Assembly: GCA_963693365.1 (NCBI GenBank)
Contig: CAVNZM010000016.1
Span: forward strand, 6,493,029-6,557,028
From: Amoebidium appalachense
Taxonomy: Eukaryota; Protista; Ichthyosporea
Direction of reading: 5' to 3'
Length of the DNA stretch: 64,000 nt
The notes beneath the pieces were generated by a model that ran no database searches, was not told where the DNA came from, and saw only the letters and a program-made list of their open reading frames with translations. Below, in pieces: positions 27,101 through 30,100 of the stretch. How positions within the stretch are numbered: position 1 is the stretch's first letter; every line of letters begins with the position of its first letter. Position numbers and translations under genes: made by a program.

Positions 27101-30100
27101 ACACACACACACACGCTCATGGGACACACACACACACACACACACACACACACACACACACACACACACACACACATGCTCACACTCACACTCACACTCA
27201 CACTCACATTAACACTTACACGCTCACGGGCACACACACACACACACACACACACAAAGACACACACACACACACACATGCACACACACACACACACACA
27301 TGCTCACACACACTCCCACTCACATTAACACTTACACGCTCAAGGGCACACACACACACACAAACACACATCACACACACACACACACACACACACACAC
27401 ACACACACACACACACACACACACACACACACACACACACACACACACACACACACACACACACACACACACACACACACACACACACACACACACACAC
27501 ACACACACACACACACACACACACACACACACACACACACAAACCACCCCAACTCCACTCCCGTCACTCGACCAACACACACACACACACACCTACCCAC
27601 ACAGCCACCCATTCCACTCACCGACCCACCTTAGCCACCCACCCCTTTCCCCCCACCCCACGCACCCCACACACTCCACCTACCCGCACACACCGGTCTC
27701 CCCCCTTCCGCCCCAATCTCCATCCTCCTCCTCTTCCCCCCGTCCCCCCTCCCCCTCTCTCCACTCATCCCCGCATCATCCCCTTCGCTCCTCTTTCCCC
27801 CACCCCCCATCATCCTCCCTCCCTCCCCCCTTCCCCCGAAGCCCCACCTTCCACCCCCCCCCCCCCCCCCCCCCCCCCCCCCCCCCAAACACACACACAC
27901 ACACAGGCCCAACACATGCCAATGCGGTACGGACACCGTTCACCTTGTAGCCAAGAAGAAAGGCCCCACCATCCCTCGTGTCGAGTCCCTCCATTCCCTC
28001 GCATCTATGAACAATATCGCCCTACCGAGAACACCAACGCTCACGCGTGGCACGAGTGTTCGTTTGCATTCAATATTGGGTGCAGGTGGTAGCTCACTTA
28101 TACGGCCTGGGCCCATATCCGCAGCCGCTATGCTCGATATAAGCGGCCAATCAGCACTCAGATCCCCACTGAGCAGACAGGTGTGTGGGGACCTTGGTTT
28201 AACATCATGTGTGGTGTGGTGGAATCCTTTTTTTTTTTTTTTTTTTTTTTTTTTTTTTTGCCGGGGGGGGGAGGGGGGGAAGGAGCGGGGGAGGGGGGGG
28301 GGGGAAGGGGGGAGGGGGGAGGGCAGGAGGGGTTATGGAAGGGACGGAAATAGAATGGGTGGAGGGAAGGGGTTGGTTGGTAATGGTGGTGGGGGATGGG
28401 GGTGTAGTGGGAAATGAGGGGAGGAAGGGGGGGGGGGGGGGGGGGGGGGGATGATGGTGAGTTGGTGTATGGGTAGGTGGGTGGGTGGGTGGGTGGTGTG
28501 TGTGTGGGGGGGGGGGGGGGGGGGGGGGGGGGTAAAGCATGTAGAACAGCATGTACCACACCATCTATAGAGGAAGGACATCGTAGAACAGGATGCACCA
28601 CACCACCAAACAGGGAATCACAAGGTACAAAGAAAATATACCACACACCACCACATACATAGGGAAACTACAAAGTGGAGCGCTATGCACCATAAACCAC
28701 CCTAACAAACCATCAAAGAGTAGAACACCACACCCCACATCCTTCATCCCCACCTCCCCCCCCCCCCCCCTATGTGGCATACCGAGCGCTTTGCTGATGT
28801 TGTATACTTGCACGTTTGCCCTTGCCTGTGTCCTGCACAGTCTTTCTCATAGTGTAGTTGTGCTTCCCTACCGTTTTCCGTATTCTAATCCCCCCCCTCC
28901 CCCCCTCCCCCCCCTCCCTCCCCCCCCCCCCCCCTCCGCTTTACTTCCACGCAACCGGGCATGGTTGCTCTGTGTCGTGCATCTGTAAGCACATACACAT
29001 TTTTCGCTGCACTGCATTAGTTTGCACACGCATCTTCACCGTTTTGCTCACCTTGCTTGCATAAGCAACCCTGCTCGTCTTTGATCAAGACGGGTTGACC
29101 CTCCCAAGTTCAGTTGATGCTGCTGTCTGAGTTGGAGAGTCGTATATACGTGGGCTAAGGGGTCGAAACTCAGACGCAATTGATGACTTGGGCCCTCCCT
29201 GAGGATGGGCTCTGCCTATGATGCATACTGTGTGCATGGATGATGTTGCATACTTGAATGTTTGCCTTTGCATGTGTCCTGCACCATGCTTCTCATCGTG
29301 TATGCGTACTTCGTACCGTGTTCCGCATTCAAACCCCCCCCCCCTCCACACAGACATCCGTTCAATCATCGACAGGCTCAGCCGTTCCCTCCCGCCTACG
29401 ACACCAACGAACAGACAGTTCAGGAACAACAGGCCCACTAGGCTCAGAGGATGGGCTGGTGGTGGGGGAGGGGGAGGATTCCGTAAAGGAGAGAGACGTA
29501 GATACGACGTTGGAACGAAAGAAAAAGAACTTGAAGAGGGAGGTGACAGTAATTAAGCCCTCAAGTGTTGATTTTGGCGTAAGGTGGTGTCGCCACCGCG
29601 GGTGTGTATACCCCCCCCCCCCCCCCCAACACACACACACACACACATCCTCCCCCCCCCCCCCCCCCCCCCCCTGCTTGCCGACTTGCTCCTTTCGCGA
29701 GGCTCTTTGTATTTCCCCCTCCCTGCCCCCCACCTCCCGAGATGCACCACCATACACCATGCTTTTACCGGACTATACAGAGAAAGGCACATCATCACAT
29801 TAACAGACACACACACACATGTACACACACACGGCACTCGCACGCACATGCACACCTACACACCCACGCACACGTGCACACGCTCAGAGAGATATGCAAA
29901 ACATCCCATAAACACACACGGACACATGTACACATGCACACACGAACGACAAACACGACAAGCGCATACAGATTCACGCACGTGAGCACATTGAGAACAC
30001 AAACAGAAATACTTACAAGGTGTAACTATGTATACGAACGACAAACACGACAAGCGCATACAGATTCACGCACGTGAGTACATTGAGAACACAAACAGAA

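Follow-up and report, generated by a model that had tools for sequence, protein, structure and literature searches.

Can a hammerhead ribozyme still act when its catalytic strand is broken in two and the remainder of a mobile element stands in the gap? The question is raised by a repeat in the ichthyosporean Amoebidium appalachense (assembly GCA_963693365.1, contig CAVNZM010000016.1, positions 6,493,029 to 6,557,028 of the forward strand; these 64,000 nucleotides are the window), for which an initial annotation had proposed a hammerhead of unusual, pseudoknotted topology inside a dispersed retrozyme-like element. Taken as a whole, the repeat is probably best explained as a Penelope-like retrozyme bearing a candidate self-cleaving hammerhead, which would fold in cis and whose catalytic strand is predicted to be broken between A9 and G10.1.

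Four copies of the ribozyme module had been proposed. Those beginning at 29059, 39331 and 39628, here called A, B1 and B2, are intact, and every strand named by the initial annotation is present in all three (Table 1). Each has the hammerhead core of CUGAnGA, GAAA and NUH: C3-U4-G5-A6-N7-G8-A9 adjoins stem I, G12-A13-A14 and the A15.1-U16.1 pair are in place, the NUH triplet lies between stems III and I, and GAAA begins 34 bases ahead of CUGAnGA. Contiguous pairs in A, B1 and B2 number 4, 3 and 3 in stem I, 9, 13 and 13 in stem III, and 6 in each case in a stem II formed with an upstream strand. U16.1 and H17 fall at 29132/29133 (A), 39402/39403 (B1) and 39699/39700 (B2), and the cleavage sites predicted earlier, U29133 and U39403, match the putative H17 of A and B1. 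The fourth copy, at 38640, is a partial relative only; what remains is a 21-base match around CUGAnGA (E 0.001) and a single upstream partner of 6 pairs at a spacing of 63 (67 in A, 62 in B), the only partner of at least 4 pairs among 25 starts, and without NUH and stem III it fails the descriptor given below. A and B are 80% identical over 179 columns, and B1 and B2, a 297-base tandem, differ at 3 of 256 bases and are thus nearly identical, so that the window holds only two independent subfamilies, A and B.

The strands run in the order P0, Px, II, J, III, NUH, I, II, GAAA, III, J, I, CUGAnGA, P0. Thus stems I and II would be pseudoknots, two extra helices (P0 and Px) lie between A9 and G10.1, and the order is no circular permutation, all as initially annotated. 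The part of Eckert et al. (2023; PMC10085705) used here divides hammerheads into blocks S, G and C and reports in vitro cleavage by type-SGC and type-CSG; the module has the order S-G-C. A descriptor drawn up after the copies had been seen (NUH, GAAA and CUGAnGA in order, stems I and III, and the upstream stem II) has three matches on both strands of the 64 kb, namely A, B1 and B2. When the window was dinucleotide-shuffled 300 times, the S-G-C part by itself matched 12 times and the complete layout never, and in 20,000 shuffles of each module the S-G-C part matched once for A and not at all for B1.

The helices are kept by compensatory change between the two subfamilies. Stems I-III, with helix J, comprise 26/26 pairs in A and 25/26 in B1. 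Ten pairs are changed between A and B1, five of them on both sides, and nine of the ten stay paired, against 3.4-5.9 expected (P 0.0002-0.003; 4 and 236 of 200,000 under the scatter null), a comparison of two subfamilies with helices picked on the same sequences. With three rows aligned, 4 of 43 pairs are changed on both sides, which 4 of 500 shuffles equalled, and proposed partners pair in 99% of cases vs 28-43% for slid partners. All 17 core positions are the same in A and B1 vs 57 of 92 other positions in 29097-29205; in DNA runs 2 of 17 core positions vary vs 21 of 251 others listed. The 5′ arm, at 42 of 45 positions conserved, nearly equals the core. The fold is, we judge, very probably under selection.

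Much depends on where stem II finds its second strand. Type-SGC hammerheads (HRIMA-1 and a variant) resemble the module in block order and in a helix joining the outer ends of stems I and II (J, 7 pairs here), and their rows in Eckert et al. (2023) share with it a run of U, the stem II strand, one base and the J strand. In the published examples, however, the stem II strand directly follows CUGAnGA, whereas in the module it lies ~100 bases upstream. Because the U-II-J run stands intact ~100 bases upstream of the core, the module reads as a type-SGC hammerhead in which J and III linked the two ends and a new opening arose between A9 and G10.1. It differs further in that J and III are joined on both strands and in the length of its I-II linker, 21 bases in A and 18 in B; with this linker and N7 = G it fails the published SGC descriptor, which sets a linker of 0-8 bases and N7 = U (Eckert et al. 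2023). The module would work like a type-SGC hammerhead, yet it is no member under that descriptor. The G10.1-C11.1 pair closing stem II forms with the upstream strand and also with a rival strand downstream. A strand 0-2 bases from A9, where type-SGC has stem II, gives only a weak register (at best −5.6 and −2.6 kcal/mol); the upstream strand is stronger (−9.4 and −7.3 kcal/mol) and covaries, and the module, to judge by its letters, probably lacks this feature of type-SGC. Variants in three DNA runs bear on the same helix: the unphased changes 39372 T>C and 39426 A>G make up similar shares (1.7-4.2% and 2.8-4.4% of summed depth) and together would convert one upstream stem II pair from U-A to C-G. 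Other variants, at 39338, 39353 and 39375, keep or add pairs.

A second line of evidence comes from Naiad elements of animals. In the supplement of Craig et al. (2021; PMC8557442), five Naiad families share the complete layout, though their helix letters are unrelated: those of Octopus (2 entries), Acropora (3) and Beroe, and those found near parts 12 and 19. This reading, made by eye on unaligned sequences, covers passages reached by motif search rather than a census of the 54 entries, and misses motifs split by line ends. The helices comprise 6 pairs each in II, 5-16 in J, 5-12 in III, 2-6 in I and 6-8 in Px, and P0 has 4-10 pairs in four families; the Octopus P0 combines 3 pairs with a mismatch and G-U pairing. 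In each family no more than one base separates the end of Px from G10.1, and what follows A9 pairs with the segment preceding Px; when the strand after A9 is matched to stem II, the Octopus and Acropora entries yield 2 pairs at most. Linkers are 0-5 bases long, and the Px loop of one of the five (Beroe) has a 6-base palindrome. The layout sits ~60-110 bases from the 3′ end in Octopus, Acropora and Beroe, and 100 and 128 bases from it in the units of the module. In addition, hammerheads of unbroken C-S-G order were recognised by eye at nematode Naiad ends (near part 14), with the same II-J-III run in a nematode Naiad. Since the same layout recurs in five Naiad families, the upstream strand is favoured over the weaker downstream one, and we hold with considerable confidence that it is the active stem II. 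The available passages of Craig et al. (2021) report half cores 35-50 nt apart in eight Naiads and mark ends as HHR_core or HHR_half_core; they give no fold and describe canonical hammerheads as lacking in Naiads. The same layout at Naiad ends suggests that the module type would be the ribozyme they were thought to lack.

If this holds, J and III would make one long hairpin, sharply bent at a hinge, onto which stems I and II would close as pseudoknots. By the rules for a standard kink-turn (k-turn), the hinge in A fits one (C-stem, 3-base bulge, tandem G-A and A-G). Its C-stem has 3 pairs in A, and B1 keeps the tandem G-A letters without the standard bulge; among the Naiads, by eye, Octopus has a hinge of standard k-turn pattern and the others a plain bulge. 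P0 and Px may stack end to end into a single helix interrupted by a nick, at which A9 and G10.1 would exit next to each other through no more than two U each; the nick would replace the single bulged base that SGC and Penelope hammerheads bear there. With G12 as base and G8 as acid, as in the hammerhead mechanism given in the passages of Zhan et al. (2024; PMC11300833), the RNA would be cut 3′ of 29133, 39403 and 39700, and by analogy with known hammerheads cleavage there is quite likely. Read-through RNA of tandem units would then be cut to unit length and may circularise, and the enzyme that copies unit RNA into C runs would come from an autonomous element at another place in the genome.

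A number of observations weigh against this picture. Within the window, neither P0 nor Px has a pair altered on both its sides, their support from outside sequences was read by eye from unaligned text, and the computation rests on two independent subfamilies. Stems I and II uncounted, the nested scaffold lies above the best fold by 13.3 (A), 7.4 (B1) and 6.4 (B2) kcal/mol; the duplexes left uncounted amount to −8.7 and −3.7 kcal/mol in A and −6.7 and −2.5 in B. Competing helices take up G8-A9 (mean pair probability 0.60 in B1), P0 is weakly paired on its inner side (0.02-0.18), folding z-scores of the whole module are only −1.56 and −0.95, and stem I in B has three pairs. Among the DNA-run variants, 39462 C>T (32-45%) makes stem I weaker and an off-state hairpin stronger, a P0 pair is lost through 39488 T>C (18-21%) and a J pair through 39458 G>C (1.4-3.5%), and no partner change is listed for 39454 G>T (16-26%), which possibly comes from A-type contigs covering that part alone; core positions in these runs are, as noted above, no quieter than others. 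No such layout was recognised in the Chlamys passages covered of Craig et al. (2021). As for the element, no Penelope-type protein (N-terminal GIY-YIG plus reverse transcriptase, RT) was found in the 153 window frames scanned, and the sole RT in the window resembles that of a long interspersed nuclear element (LINE). On the other hand, the best fold of B2 already has the outer P0, Px, J and III (0.84-0.98). Given the energy gap of the scaffold and the helices that bury G8-A9, activity may be slow, co-transcriptional or protein-assisted.

Could the module then be an ordinary type-SGC hammerhead, whose stem II comes from the strand 1-2 bases after A9 and whose upstream strand, with P0, is an off switch that stops monomers or circles from cutting? 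Insertions of 1-2 bases after A9 lie within the range known from Eckert et al. (2023), at offset 2 the downstream register forms 6 pairs in A and 4 in B, at offset 1 it forms 4 in the decayed copy, and the 39426 variant adds a pair to it too. Half of these pairs are G-U, however, and the duplex falls short of the upstream one by 3.8-4.7 kcal/mol; J comes after the upstream and not the downstream strand, as SGC geometry demands; the Octopus and Acropora Naiads offer little to pair with in that place; and 39372 T>C is accounted for only by upstream pairing. We think this account improbable. A comparably low probability attaches to a ribozyme that works only as a dimer, the second of the two modes of folding initially put forward, or between tandem neighbours, through self-complementary loops. 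A and B do carry different perfect 10-base palindromes at the same place and a palindrome in the Px loop, the cis scaffold is not the most stable fold, and minimal Penelope hammerheads have been proposed to act as palindrome-mediated dimers (PMC4209133). Yet stem III is long and complete, unlike that of dimer-dependent motifs, copy A is a lone intact module, and, since the loop palindromes are not general among the Naiad examples, with their short linkers and single palindromic Px loop, folding in cis is favoured and the dimer is less likely.

The predicted dominance of inactive folds and the near-core conservation of the 5′ arm would also suit a fold kept as a binding site for a retroelement enzyme or host protein, or left as a relic, with no useful cutting rate, and Penelope hammerheads often cut poorly in vitro (PMC4209133, in part). 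What makes this improbable is that A and B1 agree at all 17 catalytic and adjoining positions despite drift in their helix letters, that NUH, GAAA and CUGAnGA are kept in the Naiad examples, and that natural SGC and CSG hammerheads cleave at 0.004-0.19 per minute (Eckert et al. 2023). The ribozyme might, instead, be as described and its host differ: a passenger of LINEs akin to a short interspersed nuclear element (SINE), with the C run as its own tail. A fixed 3′ end, 5′ truncation and a simple-repeat tail suit LINE-type copying, and the window holds a LINE-like RT frame at 6406-8847 with a 98% identical match in a eukaryote protein set; but that LINE ends in a CA repeat, no LINE-unit match is listed in the window self-comparison, and partial tandems with a Naiad-type ribozyme point to Penelope elements. 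This is unlikely, though somewhat less so than the alternatives above. Chance assembly of short motifs within a repeat has very little to commend it; the descriptor and helices were derived from these copies and independent sequences are few, but none of the 300 window shuffles has the layout, changes keep the pairs, the same layout recurs by eye in unrelated published elements, and none of 138 pattern-matched control loci has the layout with a stem III of at least 5 pairs and an upstream stem II.

Searches beyond the window gave other loci with parts of the module pattern. Exact-pattern loci in viral contigs (0, 4 and 0), metagenomes (6) and prokaryote genomes (3) total 13, none with the S-G-C layout, and a phage blastn search gave no match. 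A scan of 2 of 64 parts for GAAAC followed by CUGAUGA returned at least 125 loci, of which 12 pass a loose S-G-C filter; all were judged chance, and the two with an upstream partner have only 2 stem I and 4 stem III pairs.

The broken hammerhead sits in a repeat with the features of a retrozyme, namely non-coding tandem units each with a predicted hammerhead, and the dispersed host proposed at the outset is confirmed by tandem and truncated units in the window and by thousands of contigs per DNA run. Units measure 297 bases (B) and about 446 bases (A-type), with a fixed 3′ end 100-128 bases past the core; all seven unit copies are on the + strand. In all five copies whose 3′ end is intact, a run of at least 8 C follows within 2 bases, against a background of 1.1% of positions. 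Contigs on unit B number 2357, 3626 and 5208 in the three DNA runs, with depth not equal to copy number, and A-type letters found upstream of copy A reappear as loose ends of DNA-run contigs; both subfamilies are therefore widespread in the genome. Contig joints run from the unit end through C runs and back into the middle of the unit. A run guessed to be RNA (X18) has 172 contigs on unit B, which we do not count as transcription. Chlamys elements, according to the passages available of Craig et al. (2021), are 5′-truncated, form partial tandems and target (C)n or (CA)n; truncation at the 5′ end, partial tandems and C-run sites are all present here, though not exclusive to the Naiad/Chlamys clade. 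The repeat is likely a non-autonomous Penelope-like retrozyme of this clade, its partner enzyme being inferred to lie elsewhere in the genome, and mobilisation of Penelope type is likely.

Table 1. The ribozyme module, its strands and related copies of the repeat in the window.
Feature	Coordinates	Strand	Evidence and remarks
5′-truncated A-type copy	25111..25248	+	Begins at stem I C run, core changed; self-comparison, copy comparison
Weak tail-only remnant	26072..26161	+	nhmmer E 0.0014
5′-truncated upstream unit (tail 28769-28887), C run, spacer	28769..29058	+	Gives ~446-base A-type unit in partial tandem
Ribozyme module copy A (subfamily A)	29059..29225	+	Strands, descriptor, covariation, folding
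P0 5′ strand	29059..29071	+	Pairs with 29207-29224 (3+6+3 pairs, one mismatch in A); invariant in window, no covariation there
Px hairpin, 9 pairs	29073..29095	+	Mean pair probability 0.88; ends one base ahead of G10.1; self-complementary 8-mer at 29081-29088 spans loop
Stem II upstream strand (29097 = G10.1)	29097..29102	+	Forms 6 pairs with 29159-29164, of which two differ on both sides in B
Helix J 5′ strand	29103..29109	+	Pairs with 29186-29192, 7/7 in A and B, one change on both sides; layout as in Eckert et al. 2023 Suppl. Fig. 6 (source used in part)
Hinge, non-bulged strand of k-turn pattern	29115..29120	+	Opposite 29176-29185; follows the standard pattern in A but departs from it in B1
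Stem III 5′ strand and NUH triplet	29124..29133	+	9 pairs; predicted cut 3′ of 29133, by analogy
Stem I 5′ strand	29134..29137	+	Pairs with 29195-29198
Linker between stems I and II	29138..29158	+	10-base palindrome 29141-29150; different 10-base palindrome in B at 39409-39418
Block G: stem II strand, GAAA (29165-29168), stem III 3′ strand	29159..29176	+	Descriptor, pair comparison
Stem I 3′ strand and C3-A9 core (29199-29205)	29195..29205	+	Descriptor, self-comparison
P0 3′ strand and tail to fixed 3′ end, then C run	29206..29333	+	Folding, copy comparison
Decayed relative	38640..38800	+	Retains stem II and the core heptamer (38781) but has lost NUH and stem III; GAAA followed by an A run
Head-to-tail pair of 297-base B units with a C run between them	39315..39900	+	2.0 copies, 98%; modules B1 (39331-39490) and B2 (39628-39787)

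Several further observations concern the repeat. Run X18 has a 224-base contig over 39416-39492 with an altered J region and a depth far above its neighbours. A contig found in two runs joins 39442 to 39432, with three telomere-like repeat units between module parts, and a deletion variant in two runs, joining 39371 to 39468, leaves at most one base between the two stem II strands. A lone unit 3′-end motif stands before a C run at 47548-47557 with the rest of the unit absent, perhaps from another family with the same end. Homopolymer runs of at least 10 bases in the window number 99 of C, 61 of G, 15 of A and 10 of T.

Elsewhere in the window, the LINE-like RT frame (6406-8847, − strand; 813 residues; RVT_1, E 3.6e-28) directly ends in its CA repeat, and relatives other than the 98% match reach at most 48% identity. 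A 219-base dispersed repeat occurs at 6051-6269, 23662-23879, 14-59 and 8856-8892, one pair being 97% identical, and part of it resembles by eye, reversed, the flank upstream of the LINE frame. A CA-rich repeat family lies at 40153-41720, 41850-43914 and 54917-55109, with a 1.2-kb near-tandem duplication of 90% identity. Host genes are split and include ribosomal protein L3 exons (32831-35199, −), of which one is 99% identical to one eukaryote protein-set entry and 70-78% to named fungal proteins; a class C G-protein-coupled receptor exon (11740-15625, +; 7tm_3 at 14252-14899); a PDZ protein (30218-31189, +); a subtilisin with an I9 propeptide (50231-51399, −); and a THAP-domain frame (62947-63999, +).

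If active as predicted, the module has wider implications. It breaks the assumption of the six-permutation scheme that blocks are uninterruptible, CUGAnGA being inseparable from its stem strands (Eckert et al. 2023, in the part used), and current descriptors thus miss a ribozyme class. It places SGC-order ribozymes in cellular eukaryotic genomes; the same source reports type-SGC from metatranscriptomes only, not cellular genomes, and type-CSG from two metagenomic sequences only. It supplies an explanation, open to test, for the apparent spread of Naiad and most Chlamys elements in the absence of a hammerhead (Craig et al. 2021, passages cited), and a core able to take in whole helices at A9/G10.1 gives RNA-switch design a new site. 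A broader reading joins these points: a hammerhead with a four-strand core and the rest of the element plugged between A9 and G10.1 would be ancestral to the Penelope clade with an N-terminal endonuclease, shared between animals and a microbial eukaryote, re-opened at different points by lineage (A9/G10.1 in the module and several Naiads, the III/J link in a nematode), maybe switched on by a k-turn-binding protein, and cutting tandem transcripts into units that seed a repeat among the most abundant of this genome. We see the chances of this reading as evenly balanced.

How does the module compare with other known systems? With its S-G-C order it is no member of types I-III or of the Rfam hammerheads: as initially expected, none of the 97 Rfam matches listed overlaps an intact copy at E ≤ 1, and in local scans each B copy matched Hammerhead_1 in part (14.2 bits against a gathering threshold of 34, E 8.9) and A not at all. 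One extra base between positions 9 and 10.1 is borne by the hammerhead of chrysanthemum chlorotic mottle viroid (CChMVd). Minimal Penelope hammerheads have a conserved one-base insertion at this same site (PMC4209133, in part), whereas the module inserts two helices and the remainder of the element. The PK (pseudoknot) hammerhead of Zhan et al. (2024; PMC11300833) likewise adds an extra stem and a helix II pseudoknot to the core; in the passages available, however, its A9 and G10.1 stay on one strand that closes a short stem, without an upstream stem II strand, P0 or Px. Three motif strings of the module have no match in the searched text of the supplement of Eckert et al. (2023). In the open literature searched, subscription papers lying outside it, no description of a helix or break between A9 and G10.1 was found, nor a report of an SGC-order hammerhead in a cellular eukaryotic repeat, and such a helix is absent from the relevant passages of PMC3088659, PMC6765202, PMC13725137, PMC10162972, PMC6155905 and PMC12192606.

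As for host elements, the short non-coding units, single or in tandem with one hammerhead each, resemble metazoan retrozymes without long terminal repeats (non-LTR retrozymes), which, according to the sections of the preprint used (bioRxiv 10.64898/2026.07.22.740005), have type I hammerheads and circular RNA and are argued, in animals, to stem from Penelope terminal repeats; the module, in contrast, has the S-G-C order, and its RNA may circularise. Its units lie in C runs, as Chlamys elements do, and it shares with five Naiad families the strand order with P0, Px and J, but Naiads are coding animal elements that favour (TA)n, whereas the unit here is non-coding and outside animals (Craig et al. 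2021, same passages). Thus the claim of a new architecture stands only in part. The scrambled order is already published as type-SGC (PMC10085705), and the hammerhead class and retrozymes are likewise known; within the literature covered, what is new is the break of the catalytic strand between A9 and G10.1 and the element that carries it.

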